A stretch of DNA of 64,000 nt from a candidate division FCPU426 bacterium. Lineage in GTDB: Bacteria; Oederibacteriota; Muellerivitia; Muellerivitales; Muellerivitaceae. The notes under the pieces are model-generated. The model was not told the origin of the DNA. It did no database searches and saw nothing but the letters and a program-made list of their open reading frames with translations. The stretch lies in the NCBI GenBank assembly GCA_963719085.1, contig CAVRAL010000005.1, positions 64,001 to 128,000 on the forward strand, written 5' to 3'. The translations under genes and the position numbers were made by a program. Positions 4,770 to 64,000 of this stretch are shown here, piece after piece (position 1 is the stretch's first letter; each line of letters begins with the position of its first letter).

Positions 4770-4893
4770 CTAGGGTCTCGCTTTCACGGCTTCAGCTTTT
4801 AAGGATCAAAATCAGAAAGACGGACTCACCAAACACTTCGAGTCAATCCGTCTTCCTGATTCAACCTTGCTTCCCAACTACTTTTAAAAAAAA

Positions 4894-5003
4894 ACGGAAT
4901 TATTCACTTCACAACGCAAACCCTATTGAAACATTGATGGAGGCTGATGATGCCGATTTTTGGCACAAATATCAGTCTTCATCGGCATTTATCGTTGTTT
5001 CAA
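4894..5003 (-). repeat. Gene-less GxxExxY-type palindromic element (subfamily 1, no insert)
   Basis: Minus strand TTGAAACAACGATAAATGCCGATGAAGACTGAT...ATCAGCCTCCATCAATGTTTCAA plus tail TTGCGTTGTGAAGTGAATAATTCCGT; aligns by eye with 47103-47215 and 21445-21636. Confidence 0.85.
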
Positions 5004-5043
5004 AAGCCGGTCACCGCTCTCTTTGTCAAAGGCATTGTTCCAT

Positions 5044-15101: not shown

Positions 15102-16613
15102 ATGCCGACCTTAGGTTCTATTGACGTCGGATCCAACGCCATGCGTTTGGCCGTTGGGTTCGTGGACCGAAACCGCAACCTTCATGTCGTGGAGGATATC
15201 CGCGAGCCGGTTCGTTTGGGACAAGACGTTTTCACCAAAGGTTCCATCAGCCGGGAAACCACCCAAAAAGCCGTGGAAGCTTTCAAACGTTTCCGGGAAG
15301 TGCTCGAACAGCACCAGGTCGTCCAGGTTCGGGCCGTCGGAACCAGCGCCCTGCGGGAAGCCCGCAACCGGGATATTTTCCTCAAAAAAATAGCGCAAAC
15401 CAGCGGCCTAGAGCTCAAGACCATCGGGTCCGAGGAAGAAGCCCTCTTGGTTTACCTGGCTGTCTCCAAAAAAATAGCCCTCGAGGACAAGACCGCCATG
15501 CTGATTGATATCGGCGGCGGCAGCGTGGAAGTGACCCTGGCCCGCAACGCCAAGATTTTGGCCACCGAAAGCTTCAAAATGGGCGCGGTGCGCCTGATGC
15601 AGGTTTTGGAACAAAAAACCTACGGCGAAAAAAAATTCAACCTGATGCTCCAAGAATACGTGGAAGCCGCGCGCAAACGGTTCAATCAAAAATTGGCGGG
15701 GCAAAAAGCGGAAATCTGCGTGGGCACCGGCGGCAACGTGGACGCCCTCTCGGATTTAAAGGGCCAGCTTTTGCGCTCCACCGACACCGGCTTCGTCACC
15801 CAAAAGGAATTGGATCTTTTAATCGCCAAGCTTCGCAAACTTTCCTATGAAGACCGCATCCTGAAGCTACGCCTGCGTCCGGACCGCGCGGACGTCATTT
15901 TACCCGCAGCCATCGTGCTTCGGGAAATTATGAAGGTCGGCAAAGCCACCCGGGTCTACATTCCCCATGTGGGCTTGAAGGAAGGCATCCTGATCGACAT
16001 GGTGTCCGAGCTTCTAAGCGGCAAGCCTCCCCTGCACCGGGACGAGGTATTGGCCGCCGCCAAGTTGCTGGGACAGAAATACCAATACGACGAACCGCAC
16101 GCCCAGCAAGTGGCCAAACTGTCCGTTGAGTTGTTCGACAAAACCAAAAAACTCCACCGCCTGGGCGACGACAACCGTTTGCTTTTGGAAGCCGCCGCCT
16201 ATGTGCATGACATCGGCCAATTCGTCAATTACGCCGCCCATCACAAACATTCCTATTACCTGATCCGTTCCTCACAAATCATGGGGCTCAACGACCATCA
16301 GCTGGAACTGGTGGCCAATATCGCCCGCTACCACCGCAAAGCCGTACCCCTTTTAAAACATGAGTCTTACCGCGCGCTGGAACCCAAAGACCGGGTCCTG
16401 GTCGCCAAGCTCGCTTCCCTTTTGCGCGTCGCCGACGCCATGGACCACGAGCACGCGTCCAAAGTCCAAGGCTTTAAAGTGCAGTATAAACGGCCCCATT
16501 TTTCCGTGACCCTGCGCGGGCATGACGATCTTCTTCTAGAAAAATGGTCCTTGCTAAAAAAATCCGATTTGTTCCAAAAGACTTTCAAGCTTAAATTTTC
16601 AGTAAGAAGCTGA
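15102..16613 (+). CDS. ppx: Ppx/GppA exopolyphosphatase with HD domain
   Basis: IDVGSNA, GTSALREA, DIGGGSVE, DRADVI, HDIG and RYHRK motifs. Confidence 0.95.
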   Translation: MPTLGSIDVGSNAMRLAVGFVDRNRNLHVVEDIREPVRLGQDVFTKGSISRETTQKAVEAFKRFREVLEQHQVVQVRAVGTSALREARNRDIFLKKIAQTSGLELKTIGSEEEALLVYLAVSKKIALEDKTAMLIDIGGGSVEVTLARNAKILATESFKMGAVRLMQVLEQKTYGEKKFNLMLQEYVEAARKRFNQKLAGQKAEICVGTGGNVDALSDLKGQLLRSTDTGFVTQKELDLLIAKLRKLSYEDRILKLRLRPDRADVILPAAIVLREIMKVGKATRVYIPHVGLKEGILIDMVSELLSGKPPLHRDEVLAAAKLLGQKYQYDEPHAQQVAKLSVELFDKTKKLHRLGDDNRLLLEAAAYVHDIGQFVNYAAHHKHSYYLIRSSQIMGLNDHQLELVANIARYHRKAVPLLKHESYRALEPKDRVLVAKLASLLRVADAMDHEHASKVQGFKVQYKRPHFSVTLRGHDDLLLEKWSLLKKSDLFQKTFKLKFSVRS

Positions 16614-16620
16614 GGCATTC

Positions 16621-17053
16621 AACAATGATGGACGCAGATGAACGCGGATGAGAACTATGGAAATAAATGAAATAACGGAAAAGACGATTGGAGCCGCCTA
16701 TAAAGTGAGCAACGCCTTGGGAGCGGGGTTTTTGGAAAAGGTTTACGAAAACGCCCTTTTCCTTGAATTACAAAAAATTGGTTTGAAAGTTAACCGGCAG
16801 CATCCGATTGTCGTCCGATACGAAGCTAATATTGTCGGGGAATATTTCGCGGATTTGCTAGTCGAGGATAAGGTCCTTATCGAACTAAAGACGGTCGAAA
16901 GTCTCTCGTCTATTCATTCAGCACAATGTTTAAATTATTTGAAAGCAACCGGTTTTAATGTGTGTCTTCTAATGAATTTTGCGGAAAGAAAATTGAAAAT
17001 AAAACGTTTAGTGAATCATTTTTAATCTGCGTTCATCTGCGTTCATCATTGTT
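16621..17053. mobile_element. Putative mobile cassette: GxxExxY gene bracketed by 29-bp inverted repeats
   Basis: Left AACAATGATGGACGCAGATGAACGCGGAT (16621-16649), right ATCTGCGTTCATCTGCGTTCATCATTGTT (17025-17053), 27/29 complementary; visibly AT-rich; sits between ppx and the tmk-like genes. Confidence 0.7.
16657..17025 (+). CDS. GxxExxY protein (PD-(D/E)xK nuclease superfamily)
   Basis: LGAGFLEKVYENAL (GxxExxY), ADLLVEDKVLIELK catalytic-type motif, AQCLNYLKATG. Confidence 0.95.
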   Translation: MEINEITEKTIGAAYKVSNALGAGFLEKVYENALFLELQKIGLKVNRQHPIVVRYEANIVGEYFADLLVEDKVLIELKTVESLSSIHSAQCLNYLKATGFNVCLLMNFAERKLKIKRLVNHF

Positions 17054-17073
17054 AATTGAAGGAGTGTTTTATT

Positions 17074-21426: not shown

Positions 21427-21444
21427 AAGCGACGGCAAATTCTA

Positions 21445-21675
21445 TTTAACATTGATAAATGCTGATGAAGACTGATGTGTGAAACACAAAAAATCGGGCC
21501 CTATCAGCCTCCGCATCGCTTCCCCATATAGAAGTTAGGGGAGAGCGACATTGTCCCGGGCATCCTCGACTTCGATATAGAGCCCCGGGGCATCAATGTT
21601 TCAATATGTCTTGCTTTGCGAAGTCAATGATTCCGTAAATATTTATCTGCGTAAATCTGCGTCTATCACTGCTAA
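21445..21675 (+). repeat. Gene-less GxxExxY-type element (subfamily 1) with 79-nt insert (21513-21591) and an extra right arm (21645-21675)
   Basis: TTTAACATTGATAAATGCTGATGAAGACTGAT...ATCAGCCTCC[79 nt]ATCAATGTTTCAA...AATGATTCCGT...ATCTGCGTAAATCTGCGTCTATCACTGCTAA. Confidence 0.85.
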
Positions 21676-21777
21676 TTGCCCTGGTTGGAGACCCCAGCCC
21701 TGGGGTATTTGTTACTGGAACGTAACAGGGCGTTTCACGATGCCTTACAAGCAAATCTTAGACTCATCCCCGACAAC

Positions 21778-22482: not shown

Positions 22483-22494
22483 CCCCCCCAAACC

Positions 22495-22644
22495 AATTTA
22501 CAATGATGAACGCTGATAAATCCAGAACCTCTGTTTTAGTCATCTGCGTCCGCGTCGCTTCTCCACATAACAGTTAGAGGAGGGCGACATTGTCCCGGGC
22601 ATCCATGACTGCAATAGGGTGCCCCGGGACATCATTGTAAAATT
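22495..22644. repeat. Gene-less GxxExxY-type element (subfamily 2) with 79-nt insert (22552-22630)
   Basis: AATTTACAATGATGAACGCTGAT...CATCTGCGTCC[79 nt]ATCATTGTAAAATT; removing the insert restores 19 nt identical (reverse complement) to the GxxExxY left IR. Confidence 0.87.
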
Positions 22645-24285: not shown

Positions 24286-24690
24286 TTACCTTTTTAAACC
24301 AGCCACCGCTTCATACCGCCAAGACACCCGATCCCCTTCCCGAAGGTGAAACTGAAAGGCGGGTATCGGCCCCTTCTTGCCATTCACTGAATAAAGCCAA
24401 AAACGTCCGTTTTTTTTGTCGCAAACCACCCCGCCGATCGCTAATACATCCTTGGCGTTGCAACAAACCACTCCTTGTTTAACCAAAACCACATTCCGGG
24501 TTGCTTCCACTACCGTGCTTCCCGGATTGATGGAAACTTTTTGACGTATCAATGGTTTTCCTGCAGGCCCGTAATCGATGTCCACTTCGACGCCCATCTT
24601 TCCCGCCGGGGCGCCCTGGACTGAATGAAAATTTCCAAGGGTCAAAACCGTCATCATAAGAACAATTTTCCAGTTCCCGTTCATTTTCAA
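24286..24690 (-). CDS. DUF4430 (transcobalamin-like C-terminal domain) exported protein
   Basis: Signal peptide, V-x-x-IGGV, FWLYSVNGK, LREGDRVSWRY; overlaps the btuB stop. Confidence 0.75.
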   Translation of the reverse strand: MKMNGNWKIVLMMTVLTLGNFHSVQGAPAGKMGVEVDIDYGPAGKPLIRQKVSINPGSTVVEATRNVVLVKQGVVCCNAKDVLAIGGVVCDKKNGRFWLYSVNGKKGPIPAFQFHLREGDRVSWRYEAVAGLKR

Positions 24691-26684: not shown

Positions 26685-26789
26685 GGCCCACTCCCCGAGG
26701 CAGAATTGGCTTAAACGGGAGCTCGAACGGAGGGACCTTCGAAAGAAGGCATTACTCCGCTTCTTACACCCGAAGAAGCATCAACAACG

Positions 26790-26943
26790 CTCAAGGCCGG
26801 TCTCCTGACTTGGGAATCTGACGTTCGCCTTCCCGGGCTTTCACCCAGTGGCCGCCTCATTGAAGAGGCCTGAACGGTAGAATTGCTTCCCTTACAGTGG
26901 CGGGTCCGCGCCGGATTCTCACCGGCTTCCCGATCACCTTGAG
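26790..26943 (-). ncRNA. Cobalamin riboswitch (btuB leader)
   Basis: Minus strand GGGAAGCCGGTGAGAATCCGGCGCGGACCCGCCACTGT...GCCACTGGG...GGGAAGGC...AGTCAGGAGACCGGCC. Confidence 0.95.
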
Positions 26944-27015
26944 TTGTGCGTACTTAATACCTGCCTTTTCAAAAACTGTCAACGGAATTTAAATCCTCTA
27001 ATAAAAATTAATTTC

Positions 27016-27172
27016 ACAATGATAAATGCTGATGAAGACTGATATTTGAAAAACACAAAATCAGACCCCATCAGCCTCCGCATCGCTTTTCCATATAACC
27101 GTTAGGGGAAAGCGATATTGTCCCGGGCATCTTTCACTTTGATATGGAATCCCGGGACATCAATGATTCCGT
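27016..27172 (+). repeat. Gene-less GxxExxY-type element (subfamily 1) with 79-nt insert (27080-27158)
   Basis: ACAATGATAAATGCTGATGAAGACTGAT...ATCAGCCTCC[79 nt]ATCAATGATTCCGT; abuts the btuF stop. Confidence 0.85.
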
Positions 27173-32250: not shown

Positions 32251-32837
32251 TAAAAATCGACTCCCGGTTTGGCGGGCCAGCCTTCATCAAATGGATGTTT
32301 TACTTTTTTCATTTCAGTCACAAGATCGGCCATTGCCAAAAGTTCGGGCGGGGCGTTGCGCCCCGTCAAAACCACGGTTAAATTTTTCGGGCGGTCCCGC
32401 AGGGCTTCTAAAACCTCGGACAGGGGTAAAAAACCATGCTGAAAGGTGTAGGTCATCTCATCCAAAACCAAAAGAAAGTATTCTCCCGAAGTCATCAAGC
32501 CCTTCGCCTTTTCCCAAGCCGCCCGGGCCGCCGCCTTGTCGATGTTTAAATCCTGGCTTTCCCAAGTAAACCCTTCCCCCATCGTGGAAAAGTCAAGTTC
32601 GGCAAGCCCCGGGGTTGAGCTCAAGACCCCGGCAAAATCCCTTTCCCCGGTCTTCCATTTGCCTTTAATGAATTGAACCACGGCTACTTTTTCACGGCGG
32701 CCCAGCGCCCGAAAAACCATGCCTAAAGCCGCGGTCGTCTTACCCTTGCCTTCGCCGGTATAAACCACCAGCAGGCCTTTTTCGATGATGTCTTTGGCGG
32801 TTTTCCGGGTCTCACTCACGATAGTTTCTTTCCCCAA
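32250..32837 (-). CDS. cobO: Cob(I)yrinic acid a,c-diamide adenosyltransferase
   Basis: YTGEGKGKTTAALG, QFIKG, LDE, TGR, ADLVTEM, KHPF. Confidence 0.96.
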   Translation of the reverse strand: MGKETIVSETRKTAKDIIEKGLLVVYTGEGKGKTTAALGMVFRALGRREKVAVVQFIKGKWKTGERDFAGVLSSTPGLAELDFSTMGEGFTWESQDLNIDKAAARAAWEKAKGLMTSGEYFLLVLDEMTYTFQHGFLPLSEVLEALRDRPKNLTVVLTGRNAPPELLAMADLVTEMKKVKHPFDEGWPAKPGVDF

Positions 32838-33484
32838 CGGTCATAAAAAACCAGGTCCGACTTGGGGATTTCGGGAAGCCATTTGGCGGTTTTAAGCTCC
32901 GGCTCGGGCGCGAAAACATCGGTATACCCCACGCAAAGATAAGCCACCGGCACCACACCCTCCGGTAATTCCAGGATGGCGGAAAGTTCTTCCGGTTTGA
33001 TGATGCTGACCCAGCCCACCCCCACCCCCTCGCAACGGGCGGCTAGCCAAAGATTTTGGACGGCACAAACCGCGCTATAAAGATCCATTTCAGGCTGGCA
33101 GGTGCGGCCCAACACCACCGGGCCAAAGCGGTTACGGTCGCAGGTCACGCAGATATTAAGGGCCGAATCCAAAATGCCCTCAAGTTTGAGCGTGGAATAT
33201 TTTTCGGCCCGTTCGTCTTGGAATAATTTTTGGGCTTCGGCGTTCGCGCGGCTGAAAGCTTCTTTGACTTGGGTCCGGATGGCGGAATCAGAAATAAGGA
33301 TGAGGTTCCAAGGTTGGCTGTAGCCTACCGAAGGGGCTTGGAGGGCGGCCTGAACTAATCGGGCCAAGACTTCCGGTGGAATCGGGTCTTTTTTAAACCG
33401 GCGCACGTCCCGCCGTTCCCGGATGACCCGGTAAACCGCGTCCCGCTCTTCGGGACTATAAGAGGCCTGAGGTTCCATATTCAT
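32816..33484 (-). CDS. bluB: 5,6-dimethylbenzimidazole synthase
   Basis: RRDVRRF, APSVGYSQPW, LKLEGI, QNLWLAARCEGVGVGWVS. Confidence 0.93.
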   Translation of the reverse strand: MNMEPQASYSPEERDAVYRVIRERRDVRRFKKDPIPPEVLARLVQAALQAPSVGYSQPWNLILISDSAIRTQVKEAFSRANAEAQKLFQDERAEKYSTLKLEGILDSALNICVTCDRNRFGPVVLGRTCQPEMDLYSAVCAVQNLWLAARCEGVGVGWVSIIKPEELSAILELPEGVVPVAYLCVGYTDVFAPEPELKTAKWLPEIPKSDLVFYDRWGKKLS

Positions 33485-33584
33485 CCTTCCCCTGGGGGTC
33501 AGGCTTTTTCAGGGGAAGGGGTGGTGAGCTTTTATAAAAAAGGCTCTCCGCCGCTTCTTACACCCGAAGAAGCCGACAATAAAG

Positions 33585-33812
33585 CTCAAGGCCGGTCTCC
33601 TGGCTTGAAAGCTTGCCCTCCGCCTTCCCAGGCTTTTGCCCAGTGGCCGCCTCTTTAAAAAAGAGGCCCGGACGACAATTAGCTTTCTCACAGTGGCGGG
33701 TCCGCGTATCGCCTTCTTTTCAGTTACTTCCTGAAGACGATATGTTCCGTCCCCGGACTTTAAATCCAGGGACTTCACAACCGGAATTTCACCGGCTTCC
33801 CAAACACCTTGA
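33585..33812 (-). ncRNA. Cobalamin riboswitch (bluB-cob leader) with a 74-nt internal insertion
   Basis: Same core as 26790-26943, but 33707-33780 is inserted between TCCGG and CGCGGACCCGCCACTG (minus strand). Confidence 0.88.
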
Positions 33813-33848
33813 ACGATGGTGCCTTGATACTCCGGTTTTAAGGGGAAG

Positions 33849-34862
33849 TCAATTAAGAAGGTAGGTGCGCTTGCGAAAGAGCAGAAATAACAATACCGGA
33901 ACGCCCAGGATGGCGGTCAGCACACCCACCGGAATTTCCGTGGGGCCAAAACAAGACCTTGCCGCGGTGTCGCATAGCATGAGAAAGGCCGCTCCCCCTA
34001 AGGCGCTGCAGATTAAAAGGAACCGGTGATCGTTGCCGACCCAAATGCGGAAAATATGGGGCACGATGAGCCCGACAAAAGCGATCGGCCCCGTCACCGC
34101 CACGACCGAACTGGTCAAGAGCGAGGCCGCCAACACGCTGAGCACAATGGTTCGAAAAGCCGGCACGCCCTTGACCTGGGCCATCTCCTCGCCCGCGGCT
34201 AAAAGGTTCAAATCCCGGCCGAGGGCGAAAAGAAATAAAAGAATCACGGCTTCCAGCACGGCCAGCCTCACCACCGAACTCCACTCCACCACATCCAAAC
34301 TTCCCATGAGCCAATGCATCATGGCGTAACTTTGGGTGAAATCGGCGAGGAAATAAAAGAGCAGCACGAGGGCGTTGAAAAAATAGTTGATCCCCACCCC
34401 GGCCAAAAGCAGGGTGATGGCCGAATAAGACCGGATCACCGCGGCCAATAGGTAAACCAAGGCCACCGAAAGCAGCGCGCCCGCGAAGGCGAATAGGGTC
34501 ACCCAGGAAAATCCAAACCAATCCGCCGTCAACCCCAACGCCAGGGCCGCGACCGCGCCGAAAGAGCTTCCCCCCGCCACGCCCAAGGTAAAGGGGCAAG
34601 CCAAAGGATTTCGCAGCACCGCCTGGAAAACCACCCCCGCCGACGCCATGGCCGCCCCCGTGAGCCCGGCTAAAAAAACCCGGGGCAGGCGGACCGCGAA
34701 AAATATTTGCGCGTCCTGGTTATAAGGGTCCGGCGGCCAGCTTTGAAAAACAGAATGGAATGAAAGTTTCGCGGAACCCAAGAGCGGGCATACCAAAAGA
34801 GCGGCCAAAAAAAATAGCGCGGTCAAAAACAGCACGCCGCCCTTAAGGGCCCCGGTTTTCAC
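33849..34862 (-). CDS. btuC: Cobalamin/iron-chelate ABC permease (FecCD family)
   Basis: VRLPRV, RNPLA, GPIAFVGLIVPH, EIPVG. Confidence 0.85.
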   Translation of the reverse strand: MKTGALKGGVLFLTALFFLAALLVCPLLGSAKLSFHSVFQSWPPDPYNQDAQIFFAVRLPRVFLAGLTGAAMASAGVVFQAVLRNPLACPFTLGVAGGSSFGAVAALALGLTADWFGFSWVTLFAFAGALLSVALVYLLAAVIRSYSAITLLLAGVGINYFFNALVLLFYFLADFTQSYAMMHWLMGSLDVVEWSSVVRLAVLEAVILLFLFALGRDLNLLAAGEEMAQVKGVPAFRTIVLSVLAASLLTSSVVAVTGPIAFVGLIVPHIFRIWVGNDHRFLLICSALGGAAFLMLCDTAARSCFGPTEIPVGVLTAILGVPVLLFLLFRKRTYLLN

Positions 34863-35657
34863 GCGAGTTCCGCTTGGTTCGGTTTAGGCACGAAGTAAGG
34901 CGCCCCGCCCTGCCGCCGGACCTTCTCAACTTCCACGCCGTGAACCGCCTTGATCCGGCCGGGGGTCAAGACCTGTCCGGGGGACCCTTCGGCCACCACC
35001 TTGCCCCGGCGCATCAAAACCAGCCGCCTCAAATATTGTCCGGCCAAATTCATCTCATGGGTGGCCACCACCACGCTCACGCCTTCTTCCCGATGAAGCT
35101 TTTGGATGATCTCAAATAAAAGAATTTGGTGGGCCAAATCCAGCGACAAGGTGGGCTCATCCAGCAGCAAAACCTCCGGCGTTTGGGCCAAAGCCGAAGC
35201 CAGCAAAACCCTTTGCCGCTCCCCGCCGGATAGTTGCTCGTAAGATCTTTCGCGAAATTCCCAGGCGTCGCAAAGTTTTAGCGCCCTTTCGCAAATGGAT
35301 CGGTCTTTGGAGCCCAATGGCTCAAATCGCCCCAAATAGGGATGCCTTCCCATTTCGACGATTTCCTTGACCGAAAGCGGAAATTGGAAATGAACCGATT
35401 GGGGCACGAAAGCGATTTTCCGGGCCCTTTCCCGGACCGAAAGATCGGTCAAGGATTCACCCTCGAATAAAACCTTTCCCGCGCCGGGCCTCAAGAGCCC
35501 CGCCAATAGGCGCAAAAGGGTCGACTTCCCGGCGCCATTCGGGCCCAAGAGCCCGAGCAAAGCGCCCTTGTCCATCGAAAGGTTAATCGCGCTGAGTCTC
35601 AAATTGGGTGTGGTCGGGATATCGGAATGAAAGCTTTTGAATTTGAAAAAGGGGCAA
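34859..35657 (-). CDS. btuD: Cobalamin ABC ATPase, apparently frameshifted near the 5' end (main ORF 34859-35602)
   Basis: GPNGAGKST, LSGGERQRV, LLLDEPT; the expected N-terminus (M)PLFQIQKLSFRY from TTG 35657 is in a different frame. Confidence 0.75.
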
Positions 35658-35791
35658 GGGTTCCCGCTTCAAAAATGGTTTGTTGAGGTGGGTTAGTTTA
35701 GAAAGCTTTTAAAAACGCGTCAACTTATAGCTGGAACCCCAAATTCCGCTTAAAATACCCGCAAGCTATTAAGAGCCTCTAACAAAAACCA

Positions 35792-35889
35792 ATTTAACAA
35801 TGATAAACGCTGATGAACGCGGGAATGAAATATCTTAAATCCTATGATTTTCCCAAATCTGCGTTCATCAGCGTTCATCATTGTTAAAT
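35792..35889. repeat. Gene-less GxxExxY-type palindromic element (subfamily 2, no insert)
   Basis: ATTTAACAATGATAAACGCTGATGAACGCGG (35792-35822) / CTGCGTTCATCAGCGTTCATCATTGTTAAAT (35859-35889), 29/31 complementary, 36-nt spacer. Confidence 0.92.
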
Positions 35890-35928
35890 GCCTTTGAGTT
35901 TTTTGGGGGGATTCTAAGAAAGGCCTAC

Positions 35929-43310: not shown

Positions 43311-43883
43311 ATGCCGACAAAATCAAATTTCTCCAGCGATCGGCCGACCCGTATTTTTCAAGTTCTTCAGTTGACCGCCAATATTTTCACCGTGGTCGGG
43401 GTCTTTATCGCGATTTCCCAAACCAGCGGGACCAATAACATCGTCAACGCCATTTACCAATCCCAGGAAAAGATCGCCTCCTACCGGCTGCTGGCGGTCA
43501 AAACCGAGATCGAGTCGAATTTAAAGATCATCGATCTCGGGCTCCAAGGAAAAAATCAGTACGAGTCCGGTTATAAAATCCCCGAATTACCGCTCTCCAC
43601 CACCGCTTATTTCGCCAGCCCCACGATTTTCAAACTGGACCATCTCAATGAGGCCGAAAACCAAAAAATAAACCTTGAGATCGCCCAAATTTACCCGCTT
43701 TGGCAAATGGCGAACTCCTTGATTCAAACCAATATGCAAATTTTATTATCGAGCAACAATCTGGATCCCGGCTTGAAACAGCGTTATCTAGTCGCGAACA
43801 ATGACAACATCCTCAAAATTTTCGAGAAGACCCGGGACATGGCCGCCGATATTGATCAAAAGATCGGCGGCGAAGCGATTTGA
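43311..43883 (+). CDS. Hypothetical membrane-anchored protein
   Basis: 190 aa, one N-terminal TM; stop overlaps the ABC ATPase start. Confidence 0.6.
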   Translation: MPTKSNFSSDRPTRIFQVLQLTANIFTVVGVFIAISQTSGTNNIVNAIYQSQEKIASYRLLAVKTEIESNLKIIDLGLQGKNQYESGYKIPELPLSTTAYFASPTIFKLDHLNEAENQKINLEIAQIYPLWQMANSLIQTNMQILLSSNNLDPGLKQRYLVANNDNILKIFEKTRDMAADIDQKIGGEAI

Positions 43884-46895: not shown

Positions 46896-47102
46896 CGCTT
46901 CCTCTTTCTTGCGACTCAAAAATGCTGTAATAAATGCCTTCGATAGGTTAGACGAACCAAGGTTCCAAAAAGAAGCAGAATTTTCGGTGGATTATTTTTT
47001 TCGGCCATTTTAAAGAGATTTAAAAAAGATACCCCGGCTAGTGGCTTCCCGAAAATATGAATTCGGAACTATGCCTTTGACAAAGCAGGCAAGGCCCGTC
47101 TT

Positions 47103-47215
47103 TTGAAACAATGATAAATGCGGATGAAGACTGATGTTTGAAACACAAAAATCGGGCTTTATCAGCCTTCATCAATGTTTTAACAGCTCTTGCTTTGCGA
47201 AGTGAATGATTCCGT
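47103..47215 (+). repeat. Gene-less GxxExxY-type element (subfamily 1, no insert)
   Basis: TTGAAACAATGATAAATGCGGATGAAGACTGAT...ATCAGCCTTCATCAATGTTTTAA...TCTTGCTTTGCGAAGTGAATGATTCCGT. Confidence 0.88.
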
Positions 47216-47221
47216 ATGAAT

Positions 47222-48184
47222 TTAATCACCGATATAACCCTTGGCGTTTTCCTGGAACTTAAACCGCGCGGCGCCTTCATCCAGTGAAGGATCTTCCGGA
47301 AAGCGGTGTCCCGTAATCCAAATTAAATTATCTTTATCCAGTCGATAAAGATCGGTCCAGGTGATTCCCCGCCCGGTCTGGGTAATCGCTAAGTAACTTT
47401 TTCCCGCCCATTGAAAAGCTTGGTCGATTTGGTTGTGGGGCAATCGGTTCCAAACCCGCAATTGGTCCCCCACCCGGCAAAGCACGGTCTGGTTGGTTTG
47501 TTTGGTGGGGTACTTATATTTCAGCTCAAGCCATTCGATGCCGGACGCCTTATCGCAAAAAGATTGGCCGTAATTCGACTCGGTCATCCAGCGTTTGATT
47601 TGCCAATCCGGCGGCGGATTTTTCAAGCCCGCCAGCATTTGGGTGAATATCTGCTGGGATGAATATTCGGGAAGGAGAATGGGGCCAAAGTCCGTGGCGC
47701 GGTCCGAAGCGACCGTTCGCGGCGAGGAAGAAGCGTCCTCCAAATAAACCGCCCGTTCGGTCCAACGGCTGGTGCCGTCAAGGGTGGCGGGCAAAGAGGC
47801 GGCCTCAAAATGAAACCAAGCGCAAACCGGGATTTTACCGATTATTTTTTGCGCTTTGAACCCGCCGACCTCGACGCTTCCCCGGCAAACCGAGTCATAA
47901 AAGACCCAAAGCTTTTCATTTTTCAGGGGTGACAGCGAAAGCGAGGGCGCCAAGTCATGGGGAAATGCCCCCATGGTCTTTTTCATCCGTTGGAGCAGGG
48001 CCGCTTCCCGGCGTTCTTCGCGCGCCGTGTCGCCCTCCCGGGGAGCGCACCCCTGGACTTCCACAAGACGGTCCAGGAAAAACCGGGGCGCCGGCTGGGC
48101 GAAGGCCGCATCGCCGACGAACCAGGCGAGAATCAACGCCCCTGCCGCGAAGCCGATTTCTTTTCGAAACATCCTGAACCCCAA
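47222..48184 (-). CDS. Hypothetical exported protein
   Basis: 320-aa ORF with signal peptide, directly downstream of GH94. Confidence 0.65.
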   Translation of the reverse strand: MGFRMFRKEIGFAAGALILAWFVGDAAFAQPAPRFFLDRLVEVQGCAPREGDTAREERREAALLQRMKKTMGAFPHDLAPSLSLSPLKNEKLWVFYDSVCRGSVEVGGFKAQKIIGKIPVCAWFHFEAASLPATLDGTSRWTERAVYLEDASSSPRTVASDRATDFGPILLPEYSSQQIFTQMLAGLKNPPPDWQIKRWMTESNYGQSFCDKASGIEWLELKYKYPTKQTNQTVLCRVGDQLRVWNRLPHNQIDQAFQWAGKSYLAITQTGRGITWTDLYRLDKDNLIWITGHRFPEDPSLDEGAARFKFQENAKGYIGD

Positions 48185-60945: not shown

Positions 60946-63864
60946 TTAATGGTGAGGCGTTGGAGTAGGAAGCGGGATGCTCCCGGCGCATAACGGCGAA
61001 TTGATGGAGGCGCTGACCGTGTGGCCGTCCAGGGTCCACGAAACCGTCACGTTATAGGGGAACGTAATCCGGAACGCGTCTCCATCACGGCCGGGAACGA
61101 ACTCCGTGGGTTGTTGCCCGTTTCCATAACTCAACGCGTTATCAGCCCCAACCGGAATGGTGACCGCCGTCGGATTGTAGCAATCCTTCATACTGTTGTT
61201 CTGGTAGCCAAAATGGGCGATTACTTGGCTGCCCTGGTCTTCCACGCAATTCAAGAAGGGTTCCACATCGACCCTTGCGCAGCCATTGGCCGTAGGCGTC
61301 GCCGTGGGAGGGACCGGCACCGGGGTGTCGGTATTGGTGGCCGGCACAGGAGTATAGGTGTTCGTCGGCGCGGGCACCGTATTGGTGAAAGTGGGCAAGG
61401 CCATGGTAGGCGTGTTGGTCGGAAGCGGCGCGACCAGGGTAAAGGTCGGCGTGGCGGAAGGCGGTACCGCCGTGGGCGTCAAGGACGGAGTCACAGCCGT
61501 ATTCGTGGCTGTCGCCGGCGGCACCGTGGCCGTATCCGTTGGCGCGAACATCACTGGCGTTTGGGTAATCGTGTCGTCCGGGGTATCCGTGGCGGTTGGA
61601 GGCACCACCGTGTCCGTATCCGTCGGCACCGCGATGACCGGCGTTTGTGTGGCCGTGTCAGCCGGAGTATTCGTATCCGTCGGGGAAACCACTGTGGCTG
61701 TTTCGGTCACGACCGGCGTAGCCGTCCAAGTGGCTCCGGGTTCAGGCGTATCCGTGGGTGTTTCAAACGGGGTCACCCCGGCCGTGGGCGTACCGGTGGC
61801 GGCCGGCGTTGGAGTTTGCGGTGTAGCCGCCCCGGTGGACGACAAGACCAACAACAATTGGGCCTGGACCTGCTGACCCTGGGCTTGCGCCGTCAAGGTG
61901 GCTTGATAGGTTCCGTCCGGCAAAGCCGTCCCCTGGCTCAAAGCGTCCCAACCCAATTGATTGCGGCCGGACTGGCCGCCAAAGTTCCCCGCGGGGTAAT
62001 CCTGCTGGTAGACCACTTGGCCCGAAGGCGATTGAATGGCCAGGTGCACGGAGGCGGCTTCCGACAATTGATAGCTGATATCGGTGGATGAAAATTCCGG
62101 ATCAAAGGGATTTGGATCGGCCGTGAACCCCGAAAGGGCCAATACGATAGGCGTCGGTGTCGTTGGGATGGCTCCGGCGGACAAGGCGAACTTTTCGACC
62201 CGGGCGTTTCCGGTATCCGAAACGAAAAGATTTCCTTGTCCGTCGGGAATGGCGCAGTAAGGCTGGTCGAATTGGGCGCCGCCCGATCCGTAACCCCCGA
62301 AAACCGCCAAGGGATTTCCGTCCAGCCCGAGTTTAATCACCAAATCATGGACACTGTCCGTTATCCAAAGCCGTCCTTGGGCGTAAACCAGTGAGGTCGG
62401 GGTCCAGTCTTGGGAAAGCCCGGTCCAAGTGGTGACCGGATCAAACCCCGGGTCATAAACCTCCACCACGTGGGTCAATCCGTTGAGGGCGTAAACCAAG
62501 CCCGCGTCATCCACGGCCATGCCCGCGTAAGAGGTGCCGCCTTGCAATCGGCCGGAATAAAGGTATTGGCCGTTGAAACCGAAACGATGGAGGGTCCCGC
62601 CATCCAACGCGTAGATCCCGGAAGCGGCTGTCTTGACGTCCGTAGGCGCCAACAATATCTGGTTTCCGAGCACCGAATCGCCGTCGGGATCAAGGCTTTC
62701 GACACGGTTGTTTCCGTCATCCGCGACATAAATCACGCCCGCGGGATCCACCGCTAAATTAACCGCTTGGTCCATTTCGCCCAGCCGATTTCCATATTGG
62801 CCCTCATTGCCCTGCCAACCTTCCACCGGTCCCCATTCCTGCACGGTTTGGTTCTTCTGGTCCAAAACAAAAAGATTATTTTGGGATATCGCCAATCCAG
62901 CCGGAATACCCCCGTTCGGGAGGATGAGCGATTGGCTGAAAGCTGGCGTGCCGACCTGCACCGAAATTTTTTCAACCGCCGCCTGTTTTTGTGAATCCAA
63001 AAATTGCAAATCATAGGCCCCCGCCGGCAAGGCGCGGGTATCCCAATCGGTGGACCAGAAAGCGCCCTGGTTTTGGGACGACAAGTCGTTCCATTGGTCC
63101 TTCCCCGACACGGACCACTGTATTTTCCATTGGGGCACGGAAGGCCGGACGGCAATCTGGACCAAACCGCAAACCTGCTCCCCATTCCAGGGTGATGAGA
63201 TGGGACTTGTTTCGGACTCCACCCCGGTGACATCCAGGGGCGGCCGGGGATCCTTCCCGCTTTGGGGATCGATGTCCTGCCCGTCGATCCATTCGGCGAC
63301 CAAGTTACCCCGGTAATAAAGGCCCACAGTAGGATTCTCGAAATAAACCGTTCCATCCCCGCACTCGGGAGCCTTGCTGTAATCCATCTCCGGTTCCATG
63401 TTGTCCCAGCCCGAATAATGGTAGGAGAAATAACTGTCTTGCCAGACGCCCCCGGGCGGAAGCGCGGACGCGTCGGTATTTTTCACCGCCACTTCCCAAT
63501 CCGCTAATTGGTCCAAGGGGTAAGCCATAAACCGGTTCATAGGCGAGGTGACGACCGTGACACCCTGCACCGACCAAACCCCCTGCGGGGTGGTCAAAGA
63601 TCCCGCGGTCCAAGACTGGGACTGGATGGGTTCGGCCCCATGGACCCAAAGATGGACTTCCAAATCCGACAAAACTATTGGCTGGGTCCCCAGATTCTTG
63701 ACGAGGAACCTCCAACCGGAAAAATCCGTGGCGCATTCCACCCGGCGCATCTCCAAGTCCAAAACAGGGGCGGTGGAAGTTTGAGCCCCTCCCCGGCCAA
63801 CCAGGGCCATGAAGAGGGCTAGGCCCAGGAGCATGTTTGTCTTTTTCATGGTTTTATTCCTCAT
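60946..63864 (-). CDS. Large secreted multidomain protein (CBM3-like, NHL repeats, FlgD-Ig-like, Pro/Thr linker)
   Basis: Signal peptide; VKNLGT.PI.LSDL...W...ADW...DYS...NPTVGLYYRG (CBM3-like); YVADDGNNRV / FVSDTGNARV; PNPFDP...WDA...PDGTY; long TPT linker. Confidence 0.78.
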   Translation of the reverse strand: MRNKTMKKTNMLLGLALFMALVGRGGAQTSTAPVLDLEMRRVECATDFSGWRFLVKNLGTQPIVLSDLEVHLWVHGAEPIQSQSWTAGSLTTPQGVWSVQGVTVVTSPMNRFMAYPLDQLADWEVAVKNTDASALPPGGVWQDSYFSYHYSGWDNMEPEMDYSKAPECGDGTVYFENPTVGLYYRGNLVAEWIDGQDIDPQSGKDPRPPLDVTGVESETSPISSPWNGEQVCGLVQIAVRPSVPQWKIQWSVSGKDQWNDLSSQNQGAFWSTDWDTRALPAGAYDLQFLDSQKQAAVEKISVQVGTPAFSQSLILPNGGIPAGLAISQNNLFVLDQKNQTVQEWGPVEGWQGNEGQYGNRLGEMDQAVNLAVDPAGVIYVADDGNNRVESLDPDGDSVLGNQILLAPTDVKTAASGIYALDGGTLHRFGFNGQYLYSGRLQGGTSYAGMAVDDAGLVYALNGLTHVVEVYDPGFDPVTTWTGLSQDWTPTSLVYAQGRLWITDSVHDLVIKLGLDGNPLAVFGGYGSGGAQFDQPYCAIPDGQGNLFVSDTGNARVEKFALSAGAIPTTPTPIVLALSGFTADPNPFDPEFSSTDISYQLSEAASVHLAIQSPSGQVVYQQDYPAGNFGGQSGRNQLGWDALSQGTALPDGTYQATLTAQAQGQQVQAQLLLVLSSTGAATPQTPTPAATGTPTAGVTPFETPTDTPEPGATWTATPVVTETATVVSPTDTNTPADTATQTPVIAVPTDTDTVVPPTATDTPDDTITQTPVMFAPTDTATVPPATATNTAVTPSLTPTAVPPSATPTFTLVAPLPTNTPTMALPTFTNTVPAPTNTYTPVPATNTDTPVPVPPTATPTANGCARVDVEPFLNCVEDQGSQVIAHFGYQNNSMKDCYNPTAVTIPVGADNALSYGNGQQPTEFVPGRDGDAFRITFPYNVTVSWTLDGHTVSASINSPLCAGSIPLPTPTPHH

Positions 63865-64000
63865 GGGGTCGCCGTAGGCGTAAAGGTTTTGGTAAAGGAT
63901 GGGTTCACCGTCGGCGTCTTGGTAGGCGTCCGCGTCACGGTAGGCGTGAAAGTCTTGGTAAAGGACGGGTTGACCGTCGGAGTCTTAGTAGGCGTCTGCG
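63861..64000 (-). CDS. 3' end of an upstream Pro/Thr-rich protein (partial)
   Basis: QTPTKTPTVNPSFTKTFTPTVTRTPTKTPTVNPSFTKTFTPTATP*; 22-aa (66-bp) tandem repeat; ATGA overlap with the next gene. Confidence 0.75.
   Translation of the reverse strand, partial: QTPTKTPTVNPSFTKTFTPTVTRTPTKTPTVNPSFTKTFTPTATP

Follow-up and report, generated by a model that had tools for sequence, protein, structure and literature searches.

A 74-nt two-hairpin insert between P4 and P5 of a predicted cobalamin riboswitch and its homologs in one bacterial family

Classical cobalamin riboswitches (AdoCbl, Cbl-I type, RF00174) are built around a P3-P6 four-way junction, with a P4 loop, a P5/L5 carrying CCC and a P6 extension, and are associated with B12 genes. 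In the portion of PMC7367189 consulted here, which reports crystal-structure work with T. tengcongensis 4GMA among the solved examples, P4 and P5 form a coaxial stack, the differences between riboswitch types centre on P1/P3 and P6, and the four-way junction is treated as an invariant ligand-binding core, classification being based on the periphery at P1/P3 and P6. The same portion covers the atypical B. subtilis yvrC riboswitch, the periphery of which departs from the Cbl-I/Cbl-II scheme around a conserved core. Our literature search for an insert in J4/5, the junction between P4 and P5, of cobalamin riboswitches found no description of one; older surveys may draw such a stem. Vitreschak 2003 reportedly mentions facultative extra stem-loops. 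A second group of systems to be compared comprises repeats of the REP/BIME/ERIC type and MITEs, short DNA repeats that fold by themselves and for that reason are tolerated when they lie within untranslated RNA; they are multi-copy and not bound to one site of one RNA family.

The riboswitch upstream of bluB described here is like the classical form in its P3-P6 four-way junction, P4 loop, P5/L5 CCC, P6 extension and B12 genes, and unlike it in having a two-hairpin domain (74-83 nt in the family of inserts reported below) between P4 and P5. It is like yvrC in departing from the Cbl-I/Cbl-II scheme with the core kept, whereas the variation in yvrC, as the consulted portion of PMC7367189 describes it, lies in the P2 arm and the P6/P7 extension and here the helices arise inside the junction, in J4/5. 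Like REP/BIME/ERIC repeats and MITEs, the insert is short, self-folding and located within untranslated RNA; unlike them, it has no transposase link, terminal repeats or target duplication that we could see, and it is not present in several dispersed copies per genome as a REP or MITE family is. Our preferred reading, to which we give a probability of about two in three, is that the 74 nt form an RNA-level expansion domain of a cobalamin riboswitch predicted to work, that they belong to a family of homologous inserts for which recombination between paralogs is the likeliest route, and that they are no recognisable copy of the two-hairpin module dispersed in the same genome.

The window, by which we mean the whole 64,000-nt stretch analysed (G000:C5:64001-128000, G000 being the source genome), contains two cobalamin aptamers as identified by an Rfam RF00174 scan, both on the minus strand. 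The relevant features, in window coordinates, are the following.

26778..26956, minus strand: short paralog of the cobalamin riboswitch, preceding the gene of a BtuB-like TonB receptor (RF00174, 96.9 bits)
Between 26910 and 26911, minus strand: empty insert site in the short btuB riboswitch (comparison with the bluB copy)
32816..33484, minus strand: bluB, first gene of the regulated cob operon (TIGR02476 BluB equivalog, 261.6 bits against a cut-off of 150; operon Pfam matches)
33551..33573, minus strand: expression-platform hairpin GCUUCUUCGGGUGUAAGAAGCGG (identical 23-mer in both leaders)
33573..33841, minus strand: long-variant aptamer of the cobalamin riboswitch that precedes bluB-cobO-cobQ (RF00174, 63.9 bits; gathering score 31.5)
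33696..33705, minus strand: P5/L5, GCGGACCCGC (Rfam alignment; invariant in alignment A3)
33707..33780, minus strand: 74-nt insert between P4 and P5, J4/5 (comparison with the paralog and Rfam alignment)
33707..33742, minus strand: hairpin B (P4b), UAUCGUCUUC ... GAAGGCGAUA (minimum free energy fold; 4 of the 7 pairs of helix 4 changed on both sides)
33743..33779, minus strand: hairpin A (P4a), with UGU/ACA closing pairs, a purine-purine internal loop and the stem GUCCCUGGA/UCCGGGGAC (minimum free energy fold; homologous covarying helix in four relatives)
33780..33796, minus strand: P4 and its loop, the closing pair being G-U in the long variant (Rfam alignment; A3 columns 6-22)

The Rfam Cobalamin model, when run on both leaders, recognised each of them. 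In the long bluB aptamer, all of model positions 1-189 are matched, including the P3-P6 junction, the loop of P4, P5/L5 and both the GCCACUG and the AGCCAGGAGACC box, which align to the consensus, and the insertion is the sole defect; the score over the whole model lies above the curated gathering threshold. The gene context agrees with membership of RF00174 in that the aptamer precedes genes for the B12 proteins BluB, CobO, CobQ, CobD, CbiB and CbiZ, the order after bluB being cobO, cobQ, an aminotransferase gene, cbiB, cbiZ and a gene for a periplasmic binding protein. As the earlier note on this DNA, made from the sequence alone, had held, the two switches are paralogs: the 23-mer CCGCTTCTTACACCCGAAGAAGC (repeat D14) is identical in both leaders, and the repeats D6, D14 and D17 are 81-88% identical between them. 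In the bluB leader, L5 ACCC and the platform loop CGGGUGU are complementary when read by eye from the sequence only, and the GGG of the platform-hairpin loop may pair with the CCC of L5 in a putative kissing loop.

We note that at 33849-35602 (minus strand), immediately upstream of the bluB switch, G000 has genes for a FecCD permease and an ABC ATPase that lack a riboswitch of their own; in G041, L095, G015 and G008, a cobalamin switch is followed by an ABC ATPase gene. A DUF4430 protein is encoded at 24286-24690 (minus strand), right behind the BtuB-like receptor of the short riboswitch.

The sequence CCGG-C-GCGGACCCGC of the btuB copy is interrupted in the bluB copy, where 74 additional nt stand between CCGG and C-GCGGACCCGC. 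Direct reading and the Rfam alignment, in which 85 nt separate P4 from P6 compared with 12 model positions, confirm this difference as it had been described. The insert costs about 30 bits of Rfam score in comparison with the short paralogs. It is not an assembly artefact, because a DNA contig from a different study (run X2) carries it, with four differences over 33710-34000. Its assignment by the earlier note to the conserved four-way junction also holds: since P4 and P5 stack coaxially in the solved structures as far as PMC7367189 was consulted, an insert between them leaves the strand that runs through this stack.

On the transcribed strand, the insert reads UUGUGAA-GUCCCUGGA...UCCGGGGAC-GGAACA-UAUCGUCUUC...GAAGGCGAUA and folds into two hairpins at -31.6 kcal/mol (z -5.29; none of 200 shuffles equally stable). 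The opposite (plus) strand reaches -19.7 kcal/mol (z -2.84), the lower stability being due to a G-U pair in each stem of the insert that becomes an A-C mismatch on that strand. The minimum free energy fold thus bears out the two-hairpin layout that had been proposed; the TCCGCG that had been counted as part of the same layout, and as shared with the module, is native P5 sequence also found in the short paralog.

Based on this architecture, two self-contained hairpins, P4a and P4b, would project from the strand that connects the 3' side of P4 with the 5' side of P5. As each hairpin folds alone with its own ends together, P4 and P5 could still stack, and the junction, L5 and the expression platform would stay intact. 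The long switch would then still sense cobalamin and repress bluB-cobO-cobQ. Among the fates suggested for the insert in the earlier note (toleration, removal from the RNA or inactivation of the switch), we uphold toleration as the probable one, considering that the same domain recurs in related switches and that the aptamer core is otherwise fully matched.

The search for related leaders comprised RF00174 scans of 41 relatives, of the whole family (31 genomes) and of the phylum (99 genomes). Riboswitch lengths were about 115-217 nt, except for five of 240-289 nt. Inserts at the same site between P4 and P5 were identified in G000, G024, G016 and G041 as well as in the metagenome contig L095, so that 4 of the 99 phylum genomes searched have the insert, all of them within one family of 31; the bearers other than G000 include members of other genera. 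These inserts are 74-83 nt long, have identical boundaries and share the linkers GUGA(A/G)G and (A/G)AA(C/U)AU. In the four relatives, hairpin A combines closing GU/AC pairs and tandem purine pairs with a 7-bp stem, and its inner stem ends in a GAGA, GAAA, GAAG or GGAUA cap; the G000 copy has no inner stem. Four of the five inserts fold better in the riboswitch sense. In an alignment of the five sequences, 94.1% of the cells pair, compared with 32-43% when the partners are slid, and 13 of the 28 pairs have changed on both sides, a count that none of 500 shuffles reaches and that overstates independence because the five sequences are few and related. Conserved pairing is equally expected of an insert that is merely tolerated, and a positive function of the domain is putative.

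A covariance model of the long variant (R3), run over the 99 phylum genomes, gave only four full matches (89.8-135.3 bits). Its remaining matches correspond to the 41-nt P4+P5 of short switches (at most 28.4 bits), together with one 72-nt match of 23.6 bits inside an ordinary riboswitch of G070, and copies of the insert outside riboswitches were absent from these genomes. BLAST of the G000 and G024 inserts returned in each case only the query itself, making both single-copy. A pattern scan of genome contigs yielded one stretch, the long variant of G041 (in a record named Candidatus Firestonebacteria), while a metagenome scan yielded 12 stretches, consisting of 3 long variants (1 new, L095) and 9 chance matches of the short linker motifs. 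The results with R3 and BLAST, along with the recurrence at one site, support that the insert is a rare, family-restricted riboswitch variant rather than a dispersed element. A lineage variant is one of the two outcomes that the earlier note itself had named as speaking against kinship with the module, although the note had in mind a common one and this one is rare, and the comparison with relatives' leaders that returned it located the homologous domain at the identical site in G024, G016, G041 and L095.

Two other riboswitches with insertions were considered. The 289-nt riboswitch of G054 (L124 333-621) was rejected as a carrier of a J4/5 insert, its extra 125 nt lying instead in the P6 extension. 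In G008 (L043 1030-1246), a 57-nt insertion lies in the P6 extension, a known variable region. The only genome of the same genus as G000, G001, has no RF00174 match and shows the FecCD gene followed by a convergent gene; for these reasons it offers no orthologous leader for comparison.

The long forms precede bluB (G000), a TonB receptor gene (G024 and G016) or an ABC-transporter ATPase gene (G041 and L095), and in other genomes genes of these kinds lie behind short forms. Within genus g3, G024 has the long form and G003, G019 and G046 have the short one. A tree of the 29 aptamer cores for which loci were available, out of about 50 family matches, built with the insert removed (170 columns), was mostly unresolved. 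On this tree, the long label requires 4 changes, at least 3 of which are forced by well-supported branches: the long G000 switch is sister to the G000 btuB switch (97/96) and the long G041 switch is sister to G008b (96/81). A single clade of insert-bearing backbones was rejected (AU p 0.0105). Pairwise identities of inserts and cores showed no clear conflict and are uninformative.

Two RNA-library contigs from two studies, representing relatives 90-92% identical in the flanks, show the bluB leader without the insert. Read by eye, they end at 33781 and 33707 with loose ends, one of 24 letters matching 33683-33706 with 3 differences and the other of 11 letters matching 33782-33792 with 1 difference. 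On this reading, the loose ends probably represent the other side of an empty site, in which the sequence runs straight from P5 to P4. The RNA runs X9 and X11 hold only 0.04 of the sampled words, and stretches that no run covers carry no weight.

The origin of both insert-free sequences in RNA libraries, together with the presence of the insert in the DNA contig from X2, would fit an intron-like element that is removed from the RNA to leave a normal riboswitch in the mature leader. The insert-free contigs, however, differ from G000 by about 8-10% in the flanks and for that reason derive from other organisms rather than from spliced G000 RNA; insert-free forms also exist as DNA in the same family. 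Moreover, the region 33700-33790 has no Rfam match at E≤5, whether to a described intron, a ribozyme or another catalytic RNA family, and self-splicing elements of such a size and shape are not known. We regard RNA-level removal as a remote rival and as extremely improbable.

The non-clade backbones and the insert-free near relatives suggest that the domain has been gained, lost or exchanged precisely. The conflict on the tree, together with the similarity of the paralogs and their near-identical flanks, points to recombination or gene conversion between riboswitch paralogs as the simplest and most likely cause. The domain belongs to a small family of homologous inserts confined to this one cobalamin-riboswitch site in one bacterial family, and its presence varies among orthologous and paralogous switches, probably through such exchange.

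A site-specific mobile element, in which the unit of hairpins A and B transposes or homes into J4/5 and is gained independently, would explain why five switches share one site although their backbones are not monophyletic and their operons are of three types, and why presence differs between near relatives and inside genus g3. Against it, the insert never exceeds one copy per genome despite one to three target switches and has no copies elsewhere. Neither terminal inverted repeats nor a target-site duplication were visible by eye at the five pairs of boundaries, and no associated gene was seen. Gene conversion between paralogs would account for this pattern and needs no novel mechanism. We consider a homing-type element the weaker rival, and an improbable one.

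The earlier note had proposed that the insert is a relative of a dispersed two-hairpin module (79/97 nt) that had landed in the riboswitch core. The window contains three copies of this module, each of 97 nt, as detected with a covariance model (R1) of the module.

21503..21599, plus strand: dispersed two-hairpin module, copy 1 (R1, 100.2 bits)
22542..22638, plus strand: dispersed two-hairpin module, copy 2, the 22.5-kb copy containing CAGTTA (R1, 103.8 bits)
27070..27166, plus strand: dispersed two-hairpin module, third copy, located immediately upstream of the promoter region of the btuB riboswitch (R1, 106.1 bits)

The G000 genome gave 39 nhmmer matches to the module at E<0.001. The 31 copies aligned in A1 adopt a two-hairpin fold with 19 predicted pairs, 10 of which have compensatory changes, and U-G pairs are numerous on the strand in which ATCnGCG comes first. 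Related modules are present in G024 (14 matches), G016 (12), G003 (4) and G001 (1), and a search of G002 found none; 30 modules from other genomes form the alignment A4, the covariance model of which (R2) recovers the three window modules at 38-53 bits. The ATCnGCG-first strand folds better in 25 of the 31 copies and in 20 of the 30. Compared with Rfam, the module copies match no family beyond chance hairpin matches.

Several observations concern the module and other repeats as such. Palindromic intergenic repeats with units of ~10 nt, ATCnGCGTTC / GATGAAnGCn, are found at 4884-5041, 16613-17058, 21437-21690, 22494-22526, 27004-27169, 35781-35900 and 47065-47225; some of them house the module, and module-free arms read ATCTGCGTTCATCTGCGTTCATCATTGTT. 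At both the G000 btuB switch (27070-27166) and the long switch of G024 (L041 1348-1447), the riboswitch promoter region has a module copy immediately upstream. Some listed module copies carry the first hairpin only, and the two natural G000 hairpins most like the module's first hairpin (profile scores 26.8 and 26.3) look like lone first-hairpin copies missed by the module searches. A weak R2 match at 43759-43881 (minus strand; 13.9 bits, E 0.087) may be a degenerate copy. Tandem repeats of 84 nt (61499-61666, 73% identical) and 66 nt (63868-63999, 85%) probably lie within a large repetitive coding region.

The insert and the module are alike in having a similar size and two hairpins. They differ in that the module occurs in about 39 copies per genome within palindromic intergenic repeats, whereas the insert is single-copy, restricted to riboswitches and flanked differently, namely by P5 and P4 rather than by the ATCnGCGT... 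/ ...ATCATTG of the module slots. With filters off, R1 gave 39 matches at E≤10 over the whole window, none of which overlaps 33707-33780. When the search was restricted to 33680-33800, the best score of the insert was 5.1 bits, in an alignment that fails to pair the module's first hairpin in register, compared with 100-106 bits for the window copies. R2 over the window had no match on the insert, nor did nhmmer with an HMM of 61 modules, and a profile of three copies run over the genome found module copies and not the insert.

We used as a null the windows centred on natural hairpins of G000 with the known modules masked. The whole insert is matched or exceeded in its score against the module by 604 of 7,959 such windows. 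In comparisons with the genome's own modules, 2,106 of 7,960 natural hairpins do as well as the G000 hairpin B does against the first hairpin, and 170 of 7,960 as well as hairpin A does against the second (p 0.02, post hoc). These per-hairpin profile tests were used in place of pairwise local alignment against the 61 modules, which we discarded after it returned weak signals in both orientations and left homology inseparable from general hairpin likeness. The loop word CAGTTA that had been cited as shared with the 22.5-kb copy does occur in both (at 33721 in the insert and at 22571 in the module copy), but it has 15 occurrences in the window compared with 10.4 expected, and by reading it is in only 2 of the 31 copies of A1.

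The scenario in which the 79-nt module was recently inserted at the DNA level into the G000 riboswitch, and was tolerated or inactivated the switch, can draw on the similar two-hairpin layout and the TCCGCG that both have on the left flank, on the resemblance of the stem GTCCCCGG/CCAGGGAC in hairpin A to the G000 module stem, which carries the post hoc p value given above, and on the existence of close relatives without the insert. In the profile alignment to the G000 modules, 39 of 1,000 structure-preserving shuffles reach the insert's real score, which counts in favour of this scenario. Over all the comparisons with the module, however, the other outcome that had been named as speaking against kinship, an insert scoring no better than shuffled two-hairpin sequences, holds in substance. 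The score of 5.1 bits lies below the 39 background matches in the window, and TCCGCG belongs to P5. The linkers and the site are common to four further inserts, which belong to other genera, and strand asymmetry is opposite in the two: the insert folds 11 kcal/mol better on the strand opposite to the one in the earlier alignment, which pairs the better-folding strand of the module with the worse-folding strand of the insert. Thus, the G000 insert is no recognisable copy of the dispersed module, kinship is not supported for this copy, and we regard its recent insertion as largely refuted and very unlikely. The proposed kinship is further weakened by the domain being single-copy, found in cobalamin riboswitches only and recurrent at one site in four other sequences of the family.

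The inserts of the relatives gave a different picture for hairpin B. With R1, the G024 insert scored 17.1 bits (E 2.3e-4 in 7.8 kb); the scores were 7.5 bits for L095 and 5.1 bits for G041, and the G016 insert had no match. With nhmmer, G024 reached 10.5 bits (0 of 1,000 shuffles as high) and G016 2.0 bits (7 of 1,000), in a coarse test that reports only about 1% of sequences. Against a first-hairpin profile made from non-G000 modules, hairpin B of the four relatives had z-scores of 7.4, 4.3, 4.2 and 4.7 in the sense orientation (1,000 structure-preserving shuffles), while hairpin A, as the internal control, had z-scores of about -1.3 to 1.1 against the relatives' module profiles. Only 2, 34, 6 and 5 of 6,785 natural G000 hairpins score as well as these four; for the G000 hairpin B, the corresponding number is 673. 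In L087, L095 and L042, R2 matches hairpin B, in the riboswitch sense, better than any other non-module sequence (8.7-11.8 bits; E 0.04-0.25); the covariance-model E-values are marginal (0.04-0.28 in 15 kb). The module's first hairpin and the relatives' hairpin B share the form AUGCCGC-pyrimidine arm ... purine arm-GCGGUAU. Because the five inserts are kin, these likenesses amount to close to one observation.

Since hairpin B of the relatives is significantly like the module's first hairpin, a distant relationship of this one hairpin, through an old common origin or a shared function, is possible although less likely than not. An ancient capture, in which the first hairpin of a module-family member landed in an ancestral J4/5 and was kept as hairpin B while the G000 copy drifted, would account for the z-scores of hairpin B against its control, for the few natural hairpins that equal it and for the R1 and R2 matches, and modules occur in G024, G016, G003 and G001. 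The E-values are nevertheless marginal for kin inserts, the orientation is ambiguous, the relatives' hairpin A is unlike the module's second hairpin and the G000 hairpin B is unremarkable in both hairpin comparisons; pyrimidine-rich GC stems that share a function or have converged by chance would give the same picture. We hold such a capture to be possible but the less probable account of hairpin B. It concerns the origin of the domain and is compatible with the expansion-domain reading, under which the 3' hairpin would at most descend from, or share a function with, the module's first hairpin. The fuller scenario, in which a repeat-family hairpin was captured in the core junction of a riboswitch, became a heritable P4a/P4b and was passed between paralogs or re-inserted, always at the same phosphodiester bond, is slightly less likely again and remains tentative.

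Taken as an RNA-level expansion domain, the insert makes the bluB leader a real and unusual variant of a known riboswitch, for which a function of the long form and a mechanism of gain and loss can be proposed from the comparisons above. In the consulted portion of PMC7367189, the four-way junction figures as invariant; a conserved, covarying two-helix domain leaving the P4/P5 stack indicates that this core tolerates more than the current scheme allows, and because of this J4/5 domain such switches lose about 30 bits of Rfam score. The on/off distribution among near relatives and paralogs is a natural experiment in how RNA domains are gained and lost and in whether hairpins of genomic repeats contribute to RNA evolution. 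Should the two forms, long and short, have different affinities or ligand preferences, the domain would represent a new tuning of B12 regulation; if they are equal, it would be a clean case of a neutral passenger domain in a riboswitch core. Should hairpin B have been captured, the family would show a structured RNA in the act of growing through the addition of hairpins derived from repeats, and the form common to about 40 genomic repeats per genome might be a shared binding site that gives the riboswitch a second input.
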